Under the pieces are notes generated by a model. The model ran no database searches. It saw only the letters and a list, made by a program, of their open reading frames with translations, and had not been told where the DNA came from. Below, one piece after another: positions 16,252 through 47,053 of a DNA stretch of 64,000 nt. This DNA is from Minisyncoccia bacterium (GTDB taxonomy: Bacteria; Patescibacteriota; Minisyncoccia; Phycocordibacterales; CALRBL01). Location of the stretch: positions 9,632 to 73,631 of the forward strand of contig JBBRPW010000001.1 of assembly GCA_038227435.1 (NCBI GenBank), read 5' to 3'. Both the position numbers and the translations under genes were made by a program. Positions within the stretch are counted from its first letter, which is position 1, and each line of letters begins with the position of its first letter.

Positions 16252-16326
16252 GCACCCGTGGTGAAATGGATATCACAACAGTCTTCGGAACTGTTTTTGT
16301 AGGTTCGAGTCCTGCCGGGTGCACCA
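16252..16326 (+). tRNA. tRNA-Arg (anticodon TCG), CCA encoded.
   Basis: Manual fold: acceptor GCACCCG/CGGGTGC, D stem GTGA/TCAC, anticodon stem ACAGT/ACTGT with loop CTTCGGA, T arm GTAGG-TTCGAGT-CCTGC, 3' ACCA. Confidence 0.85.
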
Positions 16327-16341
16327 GATAGGGTAGAGTGA

Positions 16342-16412
16342 GCGGGTATGGTTTAGTGGTAGAACACGTCCTTGCCAAGGACGAGTCGAGGGTTCGATTC
16401 CCTCTACCCGCA
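16342..16412 (+). tRNA. tRNA-Gly (anticodon GCC); CCA not encoded.
   Basis: Acceptor GCGGGTA/TACCCGC, anticodon stem CGTCC/GGACG with loop TTGCCAA, T arm AGGGTTCGATTCCCT. Confidence 0.85.
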
Positions 16413-16567
16413 CTAGGAACGAGTATAAAACAAAACGAAGTTTTGTTTTATCGAGTGACGACGTACGGGGAAGACTGGCTCTCCTGAGCCAGGCTTACAA
16501 GCACTAGGAGTTTGTCAAAGACAAACTCCTCAAAATCCCCTAAACTAACGGACCAATATAAGACAAC

Positions 16568-16576
16568 TGTGGATAA
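16568..16576 (-). promoter_or_regulatory. Perfect DnaA-box 9-mer (TGTGGATAA on the + strand).
   Basis: Exact reverse complement of TTATCCACA, lying between tRNA-Gly and the yraN-like gene. Confidence 0.3.
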
Positions 16577-16747
16577 CTACGGGGATATGTGCTTAAAAGA
16601 CATTCTAAATATCCTTATTCTTAGCCAAATGACTTTTATAATCGACATTAAGGAGCACTTTATAAAACATCATTTTTACCCATATATTTATACCTTTTTT
16701 ATAATTTCTTAATTAAAATTTTACGTATAGTATTCCAAAATCGATGA

Positions 16748-17188
16748 ATGAAATTAAAAGACATTGGTAGATATGGGGAAGCTGTCGCTAAATACTATTT
16801 TAAAAATAAGGGATATACATTCCTATCCGCAAACTTTCAAATAAGTGAAGGGGAGATTGATTTAATTTTTAAAAAAGACAATGAAATCGTTGCGATTGAA
16901 GTAAAGGCCTCAGTTATTCCTGGGAATAATGTTTTTAGTTATGAATACAGCCCAATTCAGAAAATAAATAGATTAAAACTTCATAAAATCAAAATTACAT
17001 TGTGTCACTTCATTAAAAAGCATCACCAATATAGATATTTCAACAAAAGGGTAGATTTGATAGGGGTTAGAATTCTTTCACGAGTATCCTCAGAAGATTT
17101 TAAGAATTTGAAAACTATAAGTGAGGCAATTAAGTTAAATCTCTTTAAAAACATCTTTATTACGCATATTCCCAATGTAATTTGGTAA
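16748..17188 (+). CDS. yraN: YraN/UPF0102-family predicted endonuclease.
   Basis: GRYGEAVAKYYFKNKGYTFLSANFQISEGEIDLIF...IVAIEVKA matches the UPF0102 core. Confidence 0.7.
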   Translation: MKLKDIGRYGEAVAKYYFKNKGYTFLSANFQISEGEIDLIFKKDNEIVAIEVKASVIPGNNVFSYEYSPIQKINRLKLHKIKITLCHFIKKHHQYRYFNKRVDLIGVRILSRVSSEDFKNLKTISEAIKLNLFKNIFITHIPNVIW

Positions 17189-17232
17189 AAATTTCATGGC
17201 TTTTTTGAATCATTATGCTATGCTCCTTGTAC

Positions 17233-17305
17233 CGGAGTGTAGTGTAACGGCTAACATTCTTGATTTGGGATCAAGCGACTCAGGGTTCGAATCCCTGCAC
17301 TCCGA
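17233..17305 (+). tRNA. tRNA-Pro (anticodon TGG).
   Basis: Acceptor CGGAGTG/CACTCCG, anticodon stem CTTGA/TCAAG with loop TTTGGGA, T arm CAGGGTTCGAATCCCTG. Confidence 0.85.
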
Positions 17306-17336
17306 CAAGTTTAAGTACTAATAAAGATTCAAAAAT

Positions 17337-17642
17337 ATGGCTTTCATTAAAAATGTGGAAGATTTTAAGTGTGAAAAATGTGGAACCGATATAAAAGGCG
17401 ATGGTTTCACTAACCATTGTCCTAATTGTTTATATAGTAAGCACGTCGACAACGATCCGGGGGATAGGAAAAATACATGTGGTGGCTTAATGAAGCCAAT
17501 TGCCTATATTAAAATGAAAGAGAAGGAAAAAATTACTCATCAATGTTTAGTTTGCGGCGAAGAGAAAAATAATAAAGTTTGCCTAAATGATAGTAGGGAA
17601 GCAATGGTTACTATGATTAAAAATGGAATTGAAGAGAATTAA
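17337..17642 (+). CDS. Small Cys-rich zinc-ribbon protein, RNHCP-domain-like.
   Basis: CEKCG...FTNHCPNCLYSKHVD...CGG...CLVCG; the xNHCP motif resembles the RNHCP family. Confidence 0.5.
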   Translation: MAFIKNVEDFKCEKCGTDIKGDGFTNHCPNCLYSKHVDNDPGDRKNTCGGLMKPIAYIKMKEKEKITHQCLVCGEEKNNKVCLNDSREAMVTMIKNGIEEN

Positions 17643-17709
17643 TTCCAAATAAAGCTCTGGATTGAAATATCTCTAGTATTTGCTACTATCTTCATACAAA
17701 CAAATAAAT

Positions 17710-17780
17710 GCGGGATTGGTTTAGTGGTAGAATGACTGCCTTCCAAGCAGTAGACAAGGGTTCGATTCCCTTATCCCGCA
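17710..17780 (+). tRNA. tRNA-Gly (anticodon TCC).
   Basis: Acceptor GCGGGAT/ATCCCGC, anticodon stem ACTGC/GCAGT with loop CTTCCAA, T arm AGGGTTCGATTCCCT. Confidence 0.85.
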
Positions 17781-17904
17781 CAAGACATGAACAGTTTGAG
17801 ACGGCTCGCTGTCTCAAACTAGTGAATGGCGCAGTGCGGGGCAATGTCCGCACTAGGAGTGAAACTCCTTCTCCTTCTTTCCATATTTTTTAATTTATTA
17901 AATA

Positions 17905-40926: not shown

Positions 40927-41676
40927 ATGTTTGAAAAATATCTTCAAGAATTAGGATTATCCGATAAGGAGGCAAGTGTATATATTTCACTTCTCCAGGT
41001 AGATAACGACTCAGTACTCGATTTGTCTAAAAAAACAAAAATTAATAGAACCACTATCTACCCAGTCCTTGAAAGCTTGGCCAAAAAAGGTCTTATTAGC
41101 GAAGCACAAGTTGATAAAAAGATTAGATATCACGCCGAACCACCCGAACGATTAGAAACATATGTTGAGCGGCAAAAAACAATGCTTCAAGAGCATTCAA
41201 ATCGATTAAAAGATGTAATTCCTCAGTTAAAAAGTATTCAGAGGGAAACTGGGGAAAAACCAATGGTTAAGTATTTTGAAGGTAGACAGGGTGCGATCAG
41301 TTCTCTTGAAGAGTTTTATAATTCAATCGGAAAAGGTGGCACTGCATATTTAATTTATCCAAAAGATGCAATAAAAAATATCTTCAATGAAAAAGAAATT
41401 GAAAAATATCGATCAATACGCCTTAAAAGGGAAATAAAGACAAAAGTAATAAGTACTTCGTCAAAAAACGACATAATTTCTGATTCAACAGGTAATCGAA
41501 TACAAATTGACGGAGAAAAGTATCCCATCACTTCGGATATTGCTATTTACGAAGATAAAGTAAGGGTTACTATTTTGGGGAAGTCTTTAGCAGCATTTTC
41601 AATAAAGAGTCAGGATCTTGCTGATACACTTCGTAGTTTATTTGATTTGGTATTTGATCTATCAAAAAATAAATAA
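40927..41676 (+). CDS. TrmB-family HTH transcriptional regulator.
   Basis: N-terminal LGLSDKEASVYISLL...INRTTIYPVLESLAKKGLI winged-helix region typical of TrmB. Confidence 0.6.
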   Translation: MFEKYLQELGLSDKEASVYISLLQVDNDSVLDLSKKTKINRTTIYPVLESLAKKGLISEAQVDKKIRYHAEPPERLETYVERQKTMLQEHSNRLKDVIPQLKSIQRETGEKPMVKYFEGRQGAISSLEEFYNSIGKGGTAYLIYPKDAIKNIFNEKEIEKYRSIRLKREIKTKVISTSSKNDIISDSTGNRIQIDGEKYPITSDIAIYEDKVRVTILGKSLAAFSIKSQDLADTLRSLFDLVFDLSKNK

Positions 41677-41738: not shown

Positions 41739-42326
41739 AGACCCCGTGGTCTTTTACTCCGAGAACGATAAGGTATTGCCCTTCGCGTTCTCGAACGATT
41801 TCATTGGCCTACCCCTCGGGGTAGAAAATAAGGTGTGTTTACTAGTCAGACATACTATTTTTCCTTCGGTCGGGGTTCTCTCTAACAAGGTTTGGATTTT
41901 GAGGACAGCTTTTAGCTACTAGTCCCAGCCAACAGCCGATTCGGGCGCTGTTGGCTGGGACTTTCACTTTCGGCTAGTCGCCCATATTACCTCCTTGTTA
42001 AGGTTCGGGAATCGTTCATAAGCAAGAGCGCTAATGAATTTCCAAATAAAATTTAGCATAATAAAATTGGTCTGTCAACATGTTTTAACTAAATTGAGTA
42101 TATTTGATCAATTTTATATAAAATAAGGCTATGAATATAGCTTCAATAGTGTTTTTACTTGTTATTGTCGGTTTTTGTGTTTTGACACCTGAAAAATACT
42201 ACAAAACAAATATTTTTTAATGCAATTAATGTAGTTTTATGTCATATCTAATTTACATATATTGTATATAATATCCTTATTTATCAATACTATAATGGAA
42301 TATTAAATTTAATCTGTCATAAACAC

Positions 42327-42354
42327 TTGACAAAAATATAAATATCCGTATTAT
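42327..42354 (+). promoter_or_regulatory. Sigma70-like promoter TTGACA-16 nt-TATTAT driving the island's + strand transcription.
   Basis: Consensus -35 and near-consensus -10 with 16-nt spacing, about 200 nt upstream of the first island ORF. Confidence 0.4.
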
Positions 42355-42478
42355 CTTTCTCAGTTAGAACTTTTCACCTCAACCCCCAAAGAACAATGCG
42401 TTACTACGTGCTCCCCGACGGGACCGTGGTGATCAACCCCTCTGACGCCTACTAAGGCGTTACGGGATGATCCCACTT

Positions 42479-42530
42479 CTGCGGCTTAGGCACGCGGGGG
42501 AATAATGCACCCTGGCAACAGAATCGCATC
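42479..42530 (+). repeat. Repeat family R1, copy a (CTGCGGCTTAGGCACGCGGGG...CCTGGCAACAGAAT), in the 5' leader of island ORF-A.
   Basis: A 21/21 identical block plus a 14-nt block shared with copy b at 43777-43828. Confidence 0.55.
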
Positions 42531-42561
42531 CACTAAAACATCACCCTAATTTTTTACAACT

Positions 42562-42843
42562 ATGAAAAAGATCGTGATCGGAATGATGGTCGTTCTCGCT
42601 CTACTCTTGTCGTTTGTTGCAGGTGTCTTCTACGGCACCAACGCAACTATCGCCAAGATGGAATTGCTGGAAACCCCCAGAGGCCGCATTCTTTACTACT
42701 TCATTCCGAATACATCTGCTTCGACAGAAATTTATTCGCTTGATAGTGGAGAAGATGCTGATCTCTACGAGGATTCAACACAAATTCCTGACGAAGACGT
42801 GACTGAGAGGAAAGACTCTCTGAAGGACGACACTAACCTTTAA
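42562..42843 (+). CDS. Island ORF-A: small membrane-anchored protein with an acidic C-terminal tail.
   Basis: 93-aa ORF. TM helix IVIGMMVVLALLLSFVAGVFYG. The last 14 codons and the stop lie inside repeat R2a. Confidence 0.4.
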   Translation: MKKIVIGMMVVLALLLSFVAGVFYGTNATIAKMELLETPRGRILYYFIPNTSASTEIYSLDSGEDADLYEDSTQIPDEDVTERKDSLKDDTNL

Positions 42844-42897
42844 TTCAAAAGTGTTTATTTTTGCGACCGTTTTAAATGGTTGGTTGGCGTGCAGCGC
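42801..42897 (+). repeat. Repeat family R2, copy a (97 nt), immediately upstream of HHR1.
   Basis: 94 of 97 positions identical to copy b at 45769-45866. Contains hairpin GAGAG-gaaaga-CTCTC. Confidence 0.7.
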
Positions 42898-42935
42898 TAA
42901 GAGAAAACTTTAAATCCTAACTATAAAAAGTTAGA

Positions 42936-42987
42936 TCTGTCTCGAAATGTAATTTCGACTGATGAGCTCTAGAGAGCGAAACAGAAA
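42936..42987 (+). ncRNA. Hammerhead ribozyme, type III topology (HHR1).
   Basis: TCTGTC|TCGAAATgtaATTTCGA-CTGATGA-GCTCtagaGAGC-GAAA-CAGA. All core nucleotides present (C3-A9, G12-A14, A15.1-U16.1, GUC cleavage triplet). Three stems fold as required. Confidence 0.75.
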
Positions 42988-43436
42988 GTACTTTAAAACC
43001 AAGAAAAATAATAAAAGTTAAATTCGTCTGCACTTGAGAGTGTTTTTAAAAATATTCTCACGTGCAGGCGAAAGTAGCGCCAAAGCATGTGATCGGTAGT
43101 ACACATTTAAATCTTGAGTGAGTGTCTCGGATTTAAGTGGAGTTGTACTACGTATTAATTCATCACCAAAAAAATGATTAGTGGGATGTTCTGATTGTTC
43201 TCGTACGCCTCGCGAGAGACCAACAGTCAAAATGTCACATCATTTGAGTAGGGACAAGCAGTTCGTTGCTGTGCACCGAACTTTGATGAATTATGGCTGT
43301 GAACGATCTGAGGTGAGTACCGCAAGGTAACTCAGTTTGATCTAGTAATAGTTATGGGGAAAGCGCATAAGGCTTGGTCGCCAAGTGTGTATTACCTGCT
43401 ACAAAATTTCTAAACCTCAACCAAAAAAGAATTACT

Positions 43437-43772
43437 ATGGCACATTACAGTACTTTTATTTTTCAGTTGCCAGGATGTCCCGAGATTTATATGAGTACTC
43501 GGTACAACATTATTCAGGACTTTGATTGCATTCGAAATAAGTTTGGAAAGGGGTTGATTAAGTTCAAACCTTTCTACAAGCCTGATCGAGTGCAATTTAC
43601 TCCTCCGAGTAATGGAGAAAAGCATCCTTGGGTATTGCTGACTAAATATCAGCGTAGGAAGATTCAAACCTTCCTCAATGTGGTCTACCGAAAGGGAAAC
43701 CACAGGGTACCTCGGAGATGGCGCAAGTTCGTAAAGAACGACGGCGTCTTTCCAAAGGAGTGTCTCGACTGA
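43437..43772 (+). CDS. Island ORF-B: small basic protein (R/K-rich C-terminus).
   Basis: 111-aa ORF from ATGGCACATTAC; no homologue recognised. Confidence 0.35.
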   Translation: MAHYSTFIFQLPGCPEIYMSTRYNIIQDFDCIRNKFGKGLIKFKPFYKPDRVQFTPPSNGEKHPWVLLTKYQRRKIQTFLNVVYRKGNHRVPRRWRKFVKNDGVFPKECLD

Positions 43773-43776
43773 GCAA

Positions 43777-43828
43777 CTGCGGCTTAGGCACGCGGGGTAC
43801 ACATACTACCTGGCAACAGAATTGTATG
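43777..43828 (+). repeat. Repeat family R1, copy b. It follows the ORF-B stop and precedes HHR2.
   Basis: Shares CTGCGGCTTAGGCACGCGGGG and CCTGGCAACAGAAT blocks with R1a. Confidence 0.55.
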
Positions 43829-43857
43829 AAACTGACTAGTAATTATTTACTAGTCAC

Positions 43858-43909
43858 TCTGTCTCGAAATGTAATTTCGACTGATGAGCTCTAGAGAGCG
43901 AAACAGAAA
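43858..43909 (+). ncRNA. Hammerhead ribozyme, type III (HHR2), 52/52 identical to HHR1.
   Basis: Same sequence as HHR1, preceded by the 9-bp palindrome GACTAGTAA-ttat-TTACTAGTC. Confidence 0.75.
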
Positions 43910-44304
43910 TACATTAAAAATAAAATAATTTCTTTACACCTCATCCGGCGTTTATTTGCGGCACGAAAATAACCACGCAAACAAAAAATGTGGAAACCCG
44001 CTAGACGCTGGTTGAGGTGTAATGAACAAAAAATATAGGTTGCTAGTTAACCTGATCCGAGGAGCTCTGGTTTTCCATAAGGAAAACTAAAACTTTCGGG
44101 CTTTAGTGGGGCAAGCAACGTAACGCCGGATGCGTACGTGTGAGGCCAAAAGCACAAAAACTACTTGTTTGCCCAGCTATCGGGGAATAAGCGTCGTTCG
44201 TGGTACGGCGTTATGAGCATAAGTATCAAAATCTCCGAAGCCATTCGCCCTTAAGGGTGAAATGGTTCTAGTGAGGAATTTTGAGAACGTTCTCTAACAA
44301 CCAC
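43910..44304 (+). ncRNA. Roughly 395-nt ORF-free, highly structured spacer between HHR2 and HHR4. Candidate large structured RNA of unknown class.
   Basis: Long-range inverted repeats TTACACCTCA/TGAGGTGTAA and CATCCGGCGTT/AACGCCGGATG. Local hairpins GTTTTCC-ataa-GGAAAAC and CCATTCGCCC-ttaa-GGGTGAAATGG. No ORF over 40 codons on the + strand. Confidence 0.35.
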
Positions 44305-44357
44305 TTTGTTTATCGATGTGTTTCGATACTGAAGAGCTCAAAAGAGCGAAACAGAAG
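44305..44357 (+). ncRNA. Hammerhead-like ribozyme variant (HHR4): CTGAAGA core (position 7 = A), GUU cleavage triplet, short stem III.
   Basis: TTTGTT|TATCGAtgtgttTCGATA-CTGAAGA-GCTCaaaaGAGC-GAAA-CAGAAG. Position 7 is tolerant and U17 is permitted but weaker. Confidence 0.5.
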
Positions 44358-44393
44358 ATCTTTAAATTTCAGCAACTTCAACCCCCTAAAAAA

Positions 44394-44699
44394 ATGCAAA
44401 ACCCATATGGTTCGGAGAAGCAGTTGGAAACCACCGAACAGCAGATCGACCGCCGTGTCGCGCTCAGTGTCCTCGAAGTGAGCTACCATTTTTGGGGCGC
44501 ACTTCGGGGTGGTGGCGAACGGGCCGCTGCGAACCTTTTGAACAGTTTGAAAGGTGCAGCACCACGCGGCTACTACTTCACTGTCTCGGCAGATAGGGAG
44601 TGGCGTCCGCGTGCAAACAAAGACGGAACGTTCGAGTTCCGCCGCCTGTTTCAGCCCCGAACCAACACTGTCGCCATCATCGGATTGGCAAGACGATAG
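44394..44699 (+). CDS. Island ORF-C: hypothetical protein.
   Basis: 101-aa ORF starting at ATGCAAAACCCA, directly downstream of HHR4. Confidence 0.35.
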   Translation: MQNPYGSEKQLETTEQQIDRRVALSVLEVSYHFWGALRGGGERAAANLLNSLKGAAPRGYYFTVSADREWRPRANKDGTFEFRRLFQPRTNTVAIIGLARR

Positions 44700-44719
44700 T
44701 GCCGGAAGGGTTGAAACAC

Positions 44720-44830
44720 ACGTTAAGAGTCACCGTAAAAAACTCTGGTCTGATCCACTAACAACGATCACTCGTTTATCGTATGCGAGCTTCAAAAAAC
44801 GTTCGGGTCCGCCCGTGATAGCGGCGTCGG
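44720..44830 (+). repeat. Repeat family R3, copy a (about 110 nt), followed by hairpin GGGGAAtttatTTCCCC.
   Basis: About 93% identical to copy b at 46431-46540. Some differences are compatible with conserved pairing (AACGA/TCGTT versus AATGA/TTGTT). Confidence 0.65.
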
Positions 44831-44916
44831 TAGGGGAATTTATTTCCCCACTTTATTGAGCCTGTCACATTCGGTGATTGGTTCATCAAGTTCGTTCTTT
44901 TCAAAAAAATAAAAAT

Positions 44917-45330
44917 ATGAAACTTAACGTCAAGGCTATCCGTAGTTTTGTGCTTAGTCAGGTAGTGGACAAGGAAGAGTCAGAAGCACTCATCTTTTAT
45001 TTGGCTGGCATCAATGCCGAATTCTATCTCGTAGATCCTCACACCTGCGGAGAAGAAGCAGGAGAGATTGGCTTCATGGGTTTCAACTTCACCGACAAGG
45101 TGAATGATGCAATGAATGCTGGTCTTTGGGCTGTGATTTACGACGATGGGCGCGATTATGCTTACCATAAGTACTTCCTTTTCGAGGAAGACGCTAAAAG
45201 TTTTGCAAATCGGGTTGGTGGAGGCTTATTGAAGTACACCAACACTGCAAATCGGCTGAAAGTTATTGCCCACTTTAGAAAGTTGGGCTTAATCGAAGAA
45301 GTTCCTGAAGAAGAAGGAATTCTCGAATAA
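44917..45330 (+). CDS. Island ORF-D: hypothetical acidic protein.
   Basis: 137-aa ORF from ATGAAACTTAAC. Confidence 0.4.
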   Translation: MKLNVKAIRSFVLSQVVDKEESEALIFYLAGINAEFYLVDPHTCGEEAGEIGFMGFNFTDKVNDAMNAGLWAVIYDDGRDYAYHKYFLFEEDAKSFANRVGGGLLKYTNTANRLKVIAHFRKLGLIEEVPEEEGILE

Positions 45331-45463
45331 CTTTAAGTCAATTCATATACGTTCTGCATAACGTAAAAAATGTAGCTGTTTTGCTCAATATGCGTGCAAG
45401 AAATTGCATGTCGACATATTGGCTTCTTCAGTGAAAAAAGAAGGTAAGAAAGGAGGATCAACA

Positions 45464-45760
45464 ATGATCATCGACCTTTCTCTTCGTAATGAGCGCCTGT
45501 ACAAGGGTTGCGAAATTACGGAGGTGGCAGGCCGGCTGAACTTGGTTACTCCAGTTGCTGATGCAGTTAATATCGTTGGCCGCAACGCCAATGGGTTGAT
45601 TGCAGAAGTTGCTGCGAGTGATCGGAGCGAAGTCGAGCTTACGGGTCCGATGGCGGTTTGGTCTTACTTGATCGTTTTCCACGCTGTGGTTCACGCCTTT
45701 TCGAAGGTGTACTACAACGATGGGAAAGGTCGGGTACTGATCGCCGCCCACGGCGCCTGA
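45464..45760 (+). CDS. Island ORF-E: hypothetical protein preceded by a strong Shine-Dalgarno.
   Basis: AAAGGAGGatcaacaATG gives a canonical SD at optimal spacing. 98-aa ORF (MIIDLSLRNERLYKG...). Native genes in this window generally lack an SD. Confidence 0.5.
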   Translation: MIIDLSLRNERLYKGCEITEVAGRLNLVTPVADAVNIVGRNANGLIAEVAASDRSEVELTGPMAVWSYLIVFHAVVHAFSKVYYNDGKGRVLIAAHGA

Positions 45761-45768
45761 TGCCATCT

Positions 45769-45866
45769 GACTGAGAGGAAAGACTCTCTGAAGGACGACA
45801 CTAACCTTTAATTCAGAAGTGTCTATTTTTGCGACCGTTTTAAATGGTTGGTTGGCGTGCATCGCT
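45769..45866 (+). repeat. Repeat family R2, copy b, non-coding here, immediately upstream of HHR3.
   Basis: Near-identical to R2a. Confidence 0.7.
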
Positions 45867-45890
45867 GACGGATAGATGTTCTATCCGTCA

Positions 45891-45942
45891 TCTGTCACAG
45901 GGTATTACCTTGTCTGATGAGTTCAAAAGAACGAAACAGAAG
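45891..45942 (+). ncRNA. Hammerhead ribozyme, type III (HHR3), a sequence variant of HHR1/2.
   Basis: TCTGTC|ACAGGGTattACCTTGT-CTGATGA-GTTCaaaaGAAC-GAAA-CAGAAG. Full conserved core. Preceded by hairpin GACGGATAG-atgtt-CTATCCGTC. Confidence 0.7.
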
Positions 45943-45970
45943 ATCTTTCAAAACTCCACAAATAATTTTT

Positions 45971-46204
45971 ATGAATAATCATTCGAAAGAATTGGTATGT
46001 GTTCGAGTGATTAATGTATGCGCATCCATTAAAGGCTCTTTTGGATTAGGTCACTTTATAAAAGTCGATCTGTCTGGAGTCAGTGATTGGTATATATACT
46101 GCTCAAAAACTAAACCAATTGTCGGACAAGAAATTTCCATGTTTCTTACTATGTACGGCAAATGGACATGTCTCGATGACAGAGACAATGTCGAATCATT
46201 TTAG
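45971..46204 (+). CDS. Island ORF-F: small Cys-containing hypothetical protein directly downstream of HHR3.
   Basis: 77-aa ORF from ATGAATAATCAT. Confidence 0.3.
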   Translation: MNNHSKELVCVRVINVCASIKGSFGLGHFIKVDLSGVSDWYIYCSKTKPIVGQEISMFLTMYGKWTCLDDRDNVESF

Positions 46205-46430
46205 TCGAATTAAAACCCTATGATCAACATCATCAAATCTACTCGCTATAAGGTGAGTGGCTTCATTCGTAACTGCGTTAAAAACCCTCGCACGAGCTGG
46301 AAGCTGCGGAAGCAATTGGCTTCTCGCAGCATGCGTCGCCTCGATCGAAAGGTGATCGCTGCAACGGATGTTGAGGAGCATTCGTCGTGTGTCGTATACA
46401 ATAACTTCCTGGGCTATCCGTAGCAAGGAA

Positions 46431-46540
46431 ACGTTAAGAGTCAACGTAAAAAACTCTGGTCTGATCCACCAACAATGATCACTTGTTTATCGTATGCGAG
46501 CAACAAAAAACGTTCGGGTCCGCCCGTAATAGCGGCGTGG
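46431..46540 (+). repeat. Repeat family R3, copy b, ending at the island's terminal terminator.
   Basis: See R3a. Confidence 0.65.
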
Positions 46541-46542
46541 TT

Positions 46543-46570
46543 AAGAGGAACATCAGTTCCTCTTTTTTTA
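46543..46570 (+). terminator. Rho-independent terminator AAGAGGAAcatcagTTCCTCTT + T8.
   Basis: 8-bp stem followed by a T run. Confidence 0.6.
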
Positions 46571-46615
46571 TTTCTAAATCAAATTAAGTTAAAATTTATA
46601 AACCTACTTATTAAT

Positions 46616-47053
46616 TTATTTATCGAGCTCTGAAATTATTTTTTGAGCAATATCTTCTTTTTCTCCATCTTTATAAATAATATGTTCACCATATCTCATA
46701 CTCACTCCTTTATAACGAGGGATTAAATGTGCGTGTATATGTAATATTTCCTGGCCTCCATATGAGCGATTGTTAATGAGTAGATTTACTCCATCAAGTT
46801 TAAGAGCATTCTCTAAAACGTTTGCCACCCTTTTAACTCCTTTCATCATTGTTCCAAAAAGTTCTGTGTCGATCTGAAATATGTCGTCAGCATGTGTTTT
46901 TGGAATAATAATTGTATGTCCTAAGGCAAGAGGATTAATATCGAGGAATACAAAGACATCTGCGTCTTCATAAAGCTTTGTTGTGTTAACTTCTCCTGTA
47001 ATCATTTTGCAAAAGATGCAATCTTTATGGGTTAATTCGTTATTCATGGCCAT
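46616..47053 (-). CDS. HIT-family (histidine triad) nucleotide hydrolase.
   Basis: HIHAHLIP histidine triad motif. Confidence 0.85.
   Translation of the reverse strand: MAMNNELTHKDCIFCKMITGEVNTTKLYEDADVFVFLDINPLALGHTIIIPKTHADDIFQIDTELFGTMMKGVKRVANVLENALKLDGVNLLINNRSYGGQEILHIHAHLIPRYKGVSMRYGEHIIYKDGEKEDIAQKIISELDK

Follow-up and report, generated by a model that had tools for sequence, protein, structure and literature searches.

A pseudoknot RNA resembling the tail of two-piece tmRNAs in a hammerhead-bearing gene island of an ultra-small bacterium

Organization of the locus

The window analysed here is a 64,000-nucleotide stretch of contig JBBRPW010000001.1 from a Minisyncoccia bacterium (assembly GCA_038227435.1). 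Within this DNA of an ultra-small (CPR) bacterium lies a gene island, delimited by a promoter-like site and a terminator-like hairpin (Table 1), and this island is the setting of the motif R1. An alternative genetic code in which TGA is a sense codon was rejected; since TGA ends 4 of 50 long ORFs, the window likely uses the standard code.

An earlier note, made from the letters of the window, had described R1 as two exactly conserved blocks separated by a 10-nt linker that differed fully between two copies. Each block was indeed present in two exact copies, both on the + strand. The linker measures 11 nt, and 4 of its 11 positions are identical in the two copies. No further matches to block 1 were present in the window at <=3 mismatches (0 expected by chance, 100 shuffles). 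When the sequence 3′ of block 2 is counted in, the copies constitute a 51-nt repeat at 82% identity. A covariance model built from R1 copies of other genomes and the two window copies returned just two sites on the island, copy 2 (82.4 bits) and copy 1 (70.0 bits).

Copy 2 starts 4 nt after the TGA of ORF-B, with 33 nt between its end and the Rfam hammerhead match HHR2, in line with the earlier placement near this stop codon and about 30 nt upstream of HHR2. The TGA is in frame with GCA ACU GCG GCU UAG (ATAA*) inside hairpin 1. A variable hairpin lies between copy 2 and the hammerhead, and equivalent hairpins with other sequences were found in loci L006, L004, L140 and L142. Based on the hammerhead consensus, HHR2 is predicted to cut after GUC at 43863/43864, in which case R1 would lie 35 nt from the new 3′ end.

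Copy 1 is located about 125 nt downstream of the promoter-like site and ends 37 nt before the ATG of ORF-A (42562). It had been assigned to the ORF-A leader and is better taken as lying 3′ of an ORF-B-like cassette. By its sequence, the preceding segment (42396..42489) is probably a collapsed cassette of this type, consisting of a mini-ORF with the ORF-B leader and a short peptide remnant in another frame; the distance from leader to R1 is 103 nt for copy 1 versus 363 nt for copy 2. The ALRDD of the remnant matches the C-terminus EALRDDRY* of the ORF-B homologue P0009, and the DNA stretch GGGATGATC is shared with L262.

In all ORF-B homologues for which downstream DNA was examined, R1 lies right behind or across the stop codon. 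ORF-B itself had no Pfam or PHROG match, and its AlphaFold model was mediocre (pLDDT 66) and gave no PDB fold match with E<5; a role as an SmpB-like or RNA-binding partner was rejected on these grounds. Among ten proteins compared from upstream of free-standing copies (nine phage ORFs and ORF-B), nine were without PHROG match and the remaining one matched solely families of unknown function.

Table 1. Coordinates of R1 and neighbouring features in the window.
Feature	Position	Strand	Basis or remark
Promoter-like site	42327..42354	+	TTGACA, 16 nt, TATTAT; 11/12 consensus matches; island start
Mini-ORF (19 aa)	42396-42455	+	same leader as ORF-B
Putative remnant ALRDDPTSAA*	42457-42489	+	different frame from mini-ORF; ends at loop UAG
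R1 copy 1	42479..42534	+	exact blocks, covariance-model match, pair counts
R1 copy 1, hairpin 1	42481-42495	+	UUAG loop, A42492 bulged
R1 copy 1, stem 1	42497-42500 (GGGG) x 42510-42513 (CCCU)	+	
R1 copy 1, stem 2	42505-42508 (AUGC) x 42526-42529 (GCAU)	+	
R1 copy 1, loop 3	42514-42525	+	GGCAACAGAAUC
Block 1	42479-42499 and 43777-43797	+	CTGCGGCTTAGGCACGCGGGG, exact
Linkers	42500-42510 and 43798-43808	+	
Block 2	42511-42524 and 43809-43822	+	CCTGGCAACAGAAT, exact
ORF-B (111 aa)	43437..43772	+	TGA stop at 43770-43772
R1 copy 2	43777..43830	+	exact blocks, covariance-model match
R1 copy 2, hairpin 1	43779-43793	+	
R1 copy 2, stem 1	43795-43798 (GGGU) x 43808-43811 (ACCU)	+	
R1 copy 2, stem 2	43802-43806 (CAUAC) x 43824-43828 (GUAUG)	+	
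R1 copy 2, loop 3	43812-43823	+	
Variable hairpin	43834..43855	+	GACUAGUA...UACUAGUC; read from sequence
Hammerhead HHR2 (type III)	43856..43909	+	Rfam RF00008, 41.9 bits, E 3.4e-07; gathering score 48.5 not reached
Terminator-like hairpin and U-run	46543..46564	+	island end

Structure and covariation of R1

R1 folds as one RNA, a short hairpin that stacks on an H-type pseudoknot. In the latter, GGGN and N′CCU form stem 1, and stem 2 arises by pairing of the variable linker with the 5 nt located 3′ of block 2, its sequence being free. Loop 3 is invariant and A-rich (GGCAACAGAA). The variability of the linker is explained by its place as one of the two strands of a covarying stem. The reading of R1 as a conserved, sequence-specific RNA motif tied to hammerheads was retained, whereas the proposal of two separate elements was abandoned: according to pair counts and covariation, block 1, linker, block 2 and the next 5 nt make up a single fold.

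A search of other contigs, as the earlier note had suggested, showed that the motif recurs in other genomes and in metagenomes, so that the outcome named there as refuting, no further occurrence and no RNA-model match, did not arise. For ten CPR-type copies, 97.9% of cells were paired and double changes occurred in 9 of 14 pairs; for 19 copies from other genomes and metagenomes, these values were 97.1% and 11 of 14 compensatory pairs. In both sets, none of 500 shuffles equalled the observed values. Stem 1, which was absent from the model used in aligning the 19 copies, was 100% paired in these, with two pairs changed on both sides (G-C to A-U; U-A to G-C, C-G or A-U), and stem 2 had both-side changes in all five pairs. 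Slid controls were 25-51% paired. In 98 viral copies, picked independently of the 5′ partner of the stem-1 closing pair, this pair was Watson-Crick in 54 and G-U in 19 cases (shuffled mean 33.8, maximum 45). Window copy 1 carries G-C at this position versus U-A in most copies, a compensatory change. R1 thus has two crossing helices, each with covariation, as in an H-type pseudoknot.

Folding z-scores were -1.7 and -1.9 on the + strand and about 0 on the minus strand, and R1 as a minus-strand RNA was rejected on the latter values. The minimum-energy structure given by RNAfold contains a CUG-GCAA-CAG mini-hairpin inside stem 2; no compensatory changes support it, and L141 and L009 disrupt it while keeping stem 1. 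The A-rich loop 3 lying across a G-C stem hints at a triplex-type pseudoknot.

Correspondence to the 3′ domain of two-piece tmRNAs

R1 corresponds in sequence and architecture to the 3′ domain of the coding pieces of two-piece (permuted) tmRNAs and is closest to the reduced, phage-encoded versions. Its counterpart consists of the P5 hairpin, which carries the tag stop codon, and the last pseudoknot (PK2 in two-piece tmRNAs). Stem 1 (GGGU/ACCU), loop GGCAACAGAA and the placement of the free-sequence stem 2 are shared with this domain (RF01849, phage-encoded), and in both RNAs the preceding hairpin has GCN-GCN-UAG/UAA in its loop. The features of the tmRNA 3′ domain, namely P5 followed by a pseudoknot, CGGGGU ... 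ACCUGGCAACAGAA ... and a covarying stem, are all found in R1. The consensus 3′ end of Rfam RF01849 (alpha_tmRNA) reads ...GCuGCgUAAGca...CGgGGUUCGGAGgc.ACCuGGCAACAGAA.acCucCACU, and copy 1 has a CCACU tail after the pseudoknot, as at the tmRNA 3′ end.

Using a model made from CPR copies alone, the tails of bona fide permuted tmRNAs were recovered in L001 (31.9 bits) and L015 (25.7 bits; ARAGORN tag ANDNGEAFAVAA*), together with 83 matches in 100 phage loci. In the reverse direction, alpha_tmRNA matched free-standing copies at 25-28 bits. For copy 2 the best + strand Rfam match was the alpha_tmRNA tail (positions 261-355). With 9.1 bits and E 0.21, direct Rfam backing for the two window copies is slight, a point against the overall reading of R1 given below.

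R1 is no tmRNA (RF01849, RF04321), because the tRNA-like domain with acceptor stem, T arm and CCA end is absent: no tmRNA was called in the window by ARAGORN (four tRNAs only) or by Rfam at gathering threshold. The same tools did call the tmRNAs of L001 and L015. GCG GCU UAG is present in both window copies, without PK1 or resume-codon context upstream, and the loop stop codon is lost in other copies (UUCG, UUUG and AUUG loops). In contrast to tmRNA, R1 is found in mRNA 3′ UTRs behind ordinary protein genes, in several copies per locus; its loop 3 exceeds that of tmRNA by 2 nt, and between stem 2 and stem 1 there is one additional nucleotide. A literature search yielded no description of stand-alone use of R1, nor of CUGGCAACAGAA in such a context.

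Position relative to stop codons, hammerheads and terminators

Fifteen copies are not part of a tmRNA. In thirteen of these, the start lies at -10 to +14 nt relative to the stop of a 67-166 aa ORF, and in ten a hammerhead core box follows downstream after 21-98 nt. Predicted hammerhead cleavage would leave 5-35 nt 3′ of the pseudoknot (6 nt in L011). No hammerhead follows R1 in window copy 1, L007, L141 and L262, and a terminator comes after copy B of L004. The orientation of R1 was that of the genes in all copies. No intrinsic terminator overlaps R1 in the window, and neither copy is followed by a U-run.

Related free-standing pseudoknots in phage contigs are also located 3′ of stop codons. 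A terminator-like hairpin came next in 7 of 27 phage copies, and among control stops the count was 24 of 560 (Fisher p = 2.4e-4); in a crude scan, 19 of the 27 had neither terminator nor hammerhead. The phage pseudoknot often starts 4-12 nt after UAA (consensus UGANUAAGAYUCGGGG), whereas spacing is looser in CPR copies (25-45 nt from stop to GGCAAC). A general link between hammerheads and tmRNAs was rejected, as 0 of 120 phage tmRNA tails had a hammerhead core within 160 nt. L015 is an exception to this rule and was selected by the search pattern itself.

Comparison with other RNA families

The whole window was compared with Rfam at gathering threshold, and the segments 42300-44500, 43740-43850 and 44500-46700 at E<=10. 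Apart from the weak alpha_tmRNA tail, R1 remained unmatched in these scans. The idea of a small ribozyme, for which comparison with twister, pistol and hatchet had been advised, found no backing in Rfam: models of these three families and of twister-sister, HDV-like, hairpin and hammerhead ribozymes gave no match to R1 at E<=10 (2.2 kb; 111 nt). Hammerhead-associated and RAGATH motifs of Rfam did not match R1 either, the best being RAGATH-12 on the minus strand (10.4 bits, E 7.3); a RAGATH-11 match (17.9 bits) lies elsewhere in the island. Like R1, the motifs known from the vicinity of hammerheads and twisters (RAGATH motifs, pistol, hatchet and twister-sister) occur as conserved structured RNAs among small unknown ORFs and several ribozymes in phage-like or accessory loci (PMC6765202), but no Rfam model of these families matches R1.

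Possible function of R1

Based on its position and on the analogy with the tmRNA tail, R1 would most likely be a compact 3′-UTR cap that marks and protects the end of the upstream message. The full reading, a cis-acting, tmRNA-tail-like RNA that serves as such a cap in a hammerhead-punctuated operon, is in our judgement about evenly poised between right and wrong. R1 belongs to the sense transcript, directly 3′ of the stop codon and 5′ of a signal that forms an RNA end (hammerhead or terminator); its tmRNA counterpart is placed alike, at the extreme 3′ end of a processed, terminator-less RNA. Following ribozyme cleavage or trimming, R1 would remain as the structure that closes the upstream message, where its fold could block 3′-to-5′ exonucleases and retain the stop codon on the RNA. 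Thereby it may set the stability of a cistron relative to that of its neighbours. Bacterial REP and terminator hairpins, and viral triple-helix or exonuclease-resistant structures, stabilise RNA between cistrons or at 3′ ends. With R1 they share a compact stable fold at a cistron 3′ end; R1 differs in being a sequence-conserved pseudoknot instead of a simple hairpin, and its protective effect is putative. Bacterial ribozymes have been proposed to divide polycistronic RNAs into pieces of unequal stability (PMC6765202).

Several observations speak against a role as cap. Every hammerhead of the window has its own variable hairpin directly upstream, and this hairpin could protect the new 3′ end alone, leaving R1 partly redundant. 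The four copies without hammerhead and the phage copies without either signal, both listed above, also count against it. For an exonuclease block alone, ten invariant nucleotides in the loop would be unnecessary, yet these are kept from alphaproteobacterial tmRNAs to CPR islands. Conservation this strong is a hint that R1 has a specific partner or tertiary fold.

A possible, if doubtful, alternative is that R1 binds, or mimics the part of tmRNA that touches, the ribosome or a partner in trans-translation. Candidates are ribosomal protein S1, RNase R, SmpB and the 30S head, which the tmRNA pseudoknots encircle. Placed directly behind a normal stop, R1 would then act on ribosomes that are terminating, or attract a nuclease or turn it away, rather than simply block decay. 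Cross-links between S1 and tmRNA pseudoknots are known, and RNase R-dependent decay is influenced by the distal tag codons of tmRNA. Invariance of loop 3 and stem 1 in very distant lineages, with stem 2 free, agrees with a binding partner, as does the tightly limited distance from the stop codon in many phage copies; from this spacing and established ribosome geometry, the pseudoknot would sit at the mRNA entry channel with the stop codon in the A site. The looser spacing of the CPR copies argues the other way, as does a neighbour, ORF-B, without similarity to SmpB or any known fold in the Pfam, PHROG and PDB comparisons. Moreover, tmRNA pseudoknots 2-4 can be replaced in vitro with tagging retained; they are not needed for tagging in vitro and assist folding and processing (PMC3985003).

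That the copies are non-functional relics, i.e., 3′-end fragments of two-piece ssrA genes left as attachment sites of integrating elements and duplicated in the island, appears very unlikely. The tmRNA gene's 3′ end is a well-known site of integration and prophages carry fragments of ssrA (PMC11915505, PMC9004378), those at prophage ends covering the same sequence stretch as R1 (PMC9004378). For several viral matches (L048, L061, L089) the position is a contig end and no tmRNA is present, and by eye a Xer-like tyrosine recombinase gene adjoins copy B of L004. Against this, compensatory changes in all three helices point to selection on the RNA fold, and R1 follows the orientation of genes with a fixed position relative to stop codons and hammerheads. 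R1 is probably not copied from the 3′ end of a host ssrA either, because Patescibacteria mostly have standard one-piece tmRNAs (the tmRNA database lists 5252 standard and 15 alpha-type permuted ones). Neither the 1.3 kb separating the copies nor the rest of the island was found to hold an integrase; host ssrA lies outside the window. We regard it as highly improbable that R1 represents a small self-cleaving ribozyme of a new kind, or that it joins the hammerhead next to it as one module of a composite ribozyme, even though new classes were discovered by searching beside hammerheads and twisters (PMC6765202) and R1 has a pistol-like layout (hairpin, then pseudoknot) with many invariant unpaired nucleotides. 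R1 matches no ribozyme family at the threshold used, self-cleavage would destroy the tmRNAs whose stable 3′ end has the same fold, the 120 phage tmRNA tails lack a nearby hammerhead, and a hammerhead is already present where cleavage is needed. A recoding signal, in which the pseudoknot promotes readthrough of the upstream ORF's stop codon or a frameshift at its end, is barely credible: the stop-spacer-pseudoknot geometry resembles viral signals of this kind and the TGA of ORF-B is followed by the in-frame ATAA*, but the extension frame is unconserved (copies differ in having the stop within the loop, ahead of the hairpin or in a different frame), phage copies have stops in two frames just before the pseudoknot, and a readthrough peptide would cross the freely varying stem 2.

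Implications

Whichever role applies, a second conserved RNA is consistently present between stop codon and ribozyme, so that the ribozyme can be studied within a defined 3′-end cassette (ORF, stop, pseudoknot, hairpin, hammerhead). The portion of the two-piece tmRNA tail with the strongest conservation also exists outside tmRNA, as a portable module, and as such is a simpler system in which to study the function of this module. R1 is a compact, sequence-defined pseudoknot and a candidate stabiliser of mRNA 3′ ends. A further, unlikely reading is that R1-type elements form a widespread, uncatalogued class in phage and CPR messages, an exapted tmRNA module that engages the translation or trans-translation machinery at ordinary stops. 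It might dock on the 30S subunit like the tmRNA pseudoknot ring, or recruit or deflect RNase R or SmpB. If so, the module would decide the fate of ribozyme-cut or terminator-ended mRNAs, and a shared origin would imply exchange of parts between phage two-piece tmRNAs and 3′-UTR elements. Sequence-based finders of tmRNAs or attachment sites may report R1-like elements, and their output should be read with this in mind.

Copies of R1

Both blocks of R1 are exact in its two window copies, as the earlier note had reported; the linker, described there as 10 nt long and wholly different, has 11 nt and is identical at 4 of the 11 positions. The repeat runs past block 2 to 51 nt in total, with 82% identity between copies. 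No third copy of block 1 was found in the window even at 3 mismatches, and none is expected from shuffles. Further copies were searched for using a degenerate pattern and contigs encoding homologues of ORF-B, the 111-aa ORF ending just before R1 copy 2. The motif recurs elsewhere, both in related loci of candidate-phyla-radiation (CPR) bacteria and in phage-like or viral contigs. Loci obtained were L004 (two copies), L006, L007/L008, L009/L010, L011/L012/L013, L140 (two copies), L141, L142 and L262; relatives of the locus belong to Saccharibacteria, Paceibacterota and Taylorbacteria assemblies. A metagenome scan in which a downstream hammerhead was obligatory yielded more distant copies (L014/L018, L016/17/20, L019) in phage-like contexts with Shine-Dalgarno sites, together with one complete tmRNA (L015).

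Positions of features in the window
Feature	Position	Strand	Remark
R1 block 1, 21 nt	42479-42499 and 43777-43797	+	CTGCGGCTTAGGCACGCGGGG; exact match
R1 block 2, 14 nt	42511-42524 and 43809-43822	+	CCTGGCAACAGAAT; exact match
Hammerhead HHR1	42934-42987
Hammerhead HHR2	43856-43909
Hammerhead, third	about 44310-44366		core CUGAAGAG
Hammerhead HHR4	45889-45942
Hairpins directly 5' of HHR1, HHR2, HHR4	42917-42934, 43834-43855, 45867-45889		sequence differs each time
C/A-rich leader	42376-42393, 43414-43431, 44375-44392		ACCUCAACCCCCAAAGAA and variants
99-nt repeat	42800-42898 and 45768-45866		97% identity
113-nt repeat	44720-44832 and 46431-46543		92% identity
Long inverted repeats	43023-43072 and 43930-44026
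RAGATH-11 match	44169-44300		weak, 17.9 bits

Fold and covariation

Block 1 forms a hairpin with a UUAG loop and a bulged A14 (21-mer numbering: G3-C17, C4-G16, G5-C15, G6-C13, C7-G12). Stem 1 (GGGU/ACCU) pairs the terminal G-run of block 1 and the next base with the base before block 2 and its first three bases, stem 2 pairs the 3' part of the linker with the 5 nt following block 2, and loop 3 is the remainder of block 2, GGCAACAGAA(U). Across 10 CPR-type copies 97.9% of alignment cells were paired and 9 of 14 pairs were changed on both sides; none of 500 shuffles reached this pairing, and slid controls gave 16-46%. For the alignment of 19 copies, a model holding the hairpin and stem 2 only was used, with stem 1 left out; 97.1% of cells were paired and 11 of 14 pairs were compensatory. 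Stem 1 was nevertheless paired in every cell of these 19 copies, with exchanges of G-C to A-U and of U-A to G-C, C-G or A-U. In an independent viral set (n=98), selected solely for a non-A base ahead of CCUGG, the stem 1 partner base was Watson-Crick in 54/98 and G-U in 19/98 (shuffled Watson-Crick mean 33.8, maximum 45). The CUG-GCAA-CAG hairpin preferred by RNAfold, a rival of stem 1, was unsupported. Changes in L141 and L009 disrupt it, and in both of these stem 1 is retained or strengthened.

Relation to tmRNA

The R1 pseudoknot is the counterpart of PK2, the last pseudoknot of two-piece (permuted) tmRNAs, and we hold this structural and evolutionary identification with high confidence. 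In L001, the first viral match, a permuted tmRNA (Rfam alpha_tmRNA, 150 bits) carries the motif at its 3' end. CGGGGU, a stem, ACCUGGCAACAGAA, a second stem and CACU also close the alpha_tmRNA consensus. This pseudoknot sequence is already known as the conserved, unannotated stretch ending that model. GGGU-N7-14-ACCUGGCAACAGAA was present in >120 viral contigs, with CCACCA upstream in 100 of 120 read. The tag of viral tmRNA tails ends in ..AA-stop within a hairpin loop immediately 5' of the pseudoknot, an arrangement as in R1, exemplified by L045 (GCAGCUUAGGCUG..CGGGGU) and L064 (..GGCACGCGGGGU). A model built from CPR copies only matched the tmRNA tails of L001 (31.9 bits) and L015 (25.7 bits) and gave 83 matches in 100 viral loci, the last count being partly circular because these loci were chosen by a pattern containing the core. 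Conversely, alpha_tmRNA scored 25-28 bits on free-standing copies and weakly on window copy 2 (9.1 bits, E 0.21), yet it was the best plus-strand family there.

No tmRNA was found in the window, and CPR tmRNAs in 6765 genomes are overwhelmingly one-piece (5252 standard against 15 alpha-type permuted; PMC11915505 supplement). Hence R1 is not a tmRNA, and it does not duplicate the 3' end of the host gene either.

A type I hammerhead lies 15 nt beyond the complete permuted tmRNA of L015 (3251-3717, minus; ARAGORN tag ANDNGEAFAVAA*, alpha_tmRNA 139 bits). This layout would leave the ribozyme joined to the tmRNA tail; it was seen in 0 of 120 other phage tmRNA tails.

About half of the second viral set carried no tmRNA features. 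These copies lie 3' of small ORFs, often after stops in two frames (consensus UGANUAAGAYUCGGGG), some contigs carry two, and no Rfam family was found for them. A crude scan placed a terminator-like hairpin after 7/27 free-standing viral copies, compared with 24/560 control stop codons (p = 2.4e-4). Free-standing PK2-like pseudoknots directly 3' of the stops of small phage ORFs were noted in L144, L148, L166, L171, L177, L183, L195, L203, L153, L162 and others. Loci L148, L177 and L195 each carry a pair of them; the variable strand of L144 seems paired with the 5' rather than the 3' flank.

Position and possible role of R1

In 13 of 15 non-tmRNA copies, an ORF of 67-166 aa ends close to the start of R1, which falls at -10 to +14 nt relative to its stop codon. 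The hairpin-loop UAG itself serves as the ORF-B stop in L007, L141 and L262, and in L004 copy A the stop falls within the 5' strand of the hairpin. A hammerhead core box follows 21-98 nt 3' of R1 in 10/15 copies, where predicted cleavage leaves 5-35 nt past stem 2 (77 nt once; 6 nt in L011); L004 copy B has a terminator downstream. Wherever the DNA 3' of an ORF-B homologue was sequenced, R1 is present. Since the ORFs upstream of R1 come from several unrelated families, it is a portable module. In the window, ORF-B precedes copy 2 and a mere 19-aa ORF with the ORF-B leader sequence precedes copy 1. The frame closing at the loop UAG of copy 1 reads ALRDDPTSAA-stop, matching the C-terminus EALRDDRY-stop of the ORF-B homologue P0009; leader and ALRDD remnant indicate that copy 1 probably marks a collapsed ORF-B-like cassette.

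R1 is a conserved RNA with a pseudoknot that lies in the sense direction and keeps to stop codons. A signal that generates RNA ends often follows closely, and R1 is akin to the last domain of tmRNA, a processed RNA without terminator. The role inferred for it is that of a 3' cap, which would outlast cleavage and trimming and would shield the cistron upstream, stop codon included, against 3' exonucleases. Such a role fits the proposal that bacterial ribozymes divide operon transcripts into pieces differing in stability (PMC6765202), and the finding that tmRNA pseudoknots count for folding and processing, not tagging itself (PMC3985003). The main alternative is a ribosome- or factor-binding element, and the invariant loop of R1 hints at a specific partner. 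Against the cap, every hammerhead here already has its own hairpin upstream, and some R1 copies have no end signal nearby. Granted the structural and evolutionary identification, we put the cap role at slightly under an even chance. In neither Rfam 15 nor the searchable literature did we find this pseudoknot described outside tmRNA, as a hammerhead-coupled element in the 3' UTRs of mRNAs from CPR islands and phages; such an absence is no proof of novelty.

The island around R1

The R1 copies sit in a 4.2-kb stretch (42327-46564) with G+C above that of its flanks, holding eight small plus-strand ORFs, none with a Pfam match, and four hammerhead ribozymes. A strong promoter-like site opens it and a terminator-like site closes it, giving an operon-like unit punctuated by hammerheads, with a TrmB-family gene on one side and a HIT-family gene on the other.

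The C/A-rich leader stands before three start codons where a Shine-Dalgarno sequence would; one of these belongs to the 19-aa mini-ORF ahead of R1 copy 1. Copies of the 99-nt repeat end 35 nt before HHR1 and 22 nt before HHR4. In ORF-A, which starts at 42562, the repeat forms the last 14 codons (..TERKDSLKDDTNL*), and its second copy continues in frame after the TGA stop of ORF 45464-45760. Like the ORF-B TGA followed by in-frame ATAA-stop in R1, this suggests that 3' modules supply their own terminal codons and stop. The 113-nt repeat, without Rfam match, lies behind two other ORFs with a hairpin after each copy; the island may thereby hold 3'-UTR modules of a third type.

A stable hairpin, then ACUUUAUUGAG, then a second long hairpin recurs in the window (44833-44860), L007 (about 2354-2385), L141 (about 853-885) and L262 (about 855-900). 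It lies directly 3' of R1 in the three relatives, replacing the hammerhead, and might be another processing element. The ORF-free stretches between hammerheads (42990-43410 and 43920-44310), which contain the long inverted repeats, are possibly non-coding RNAs freed by the ribozymes.

For the other ORFs of the island, related loci contain no homologues, so the position is conserved but the genes found there vary greatly. The TrmB-family regulator gene adjoins the island in four genomes (window 40927-41676; L009 569-1330, with 65% identity to that of the window; L006 4510-4833; L004 1735-2439), and a tRNA cluster Arg-Gly-Pro-Gly is common to the window (16252-17781), L004 and L006. Finally, a 5'-UTR-like conserved motif, UUUGCUCAA..CAGAGCACGUAUGGCGUA..CGAUACCGCC, was observed in related islands, each time ahead of a different ORF (L004 about 905-955, minus; L006 6671-6720).
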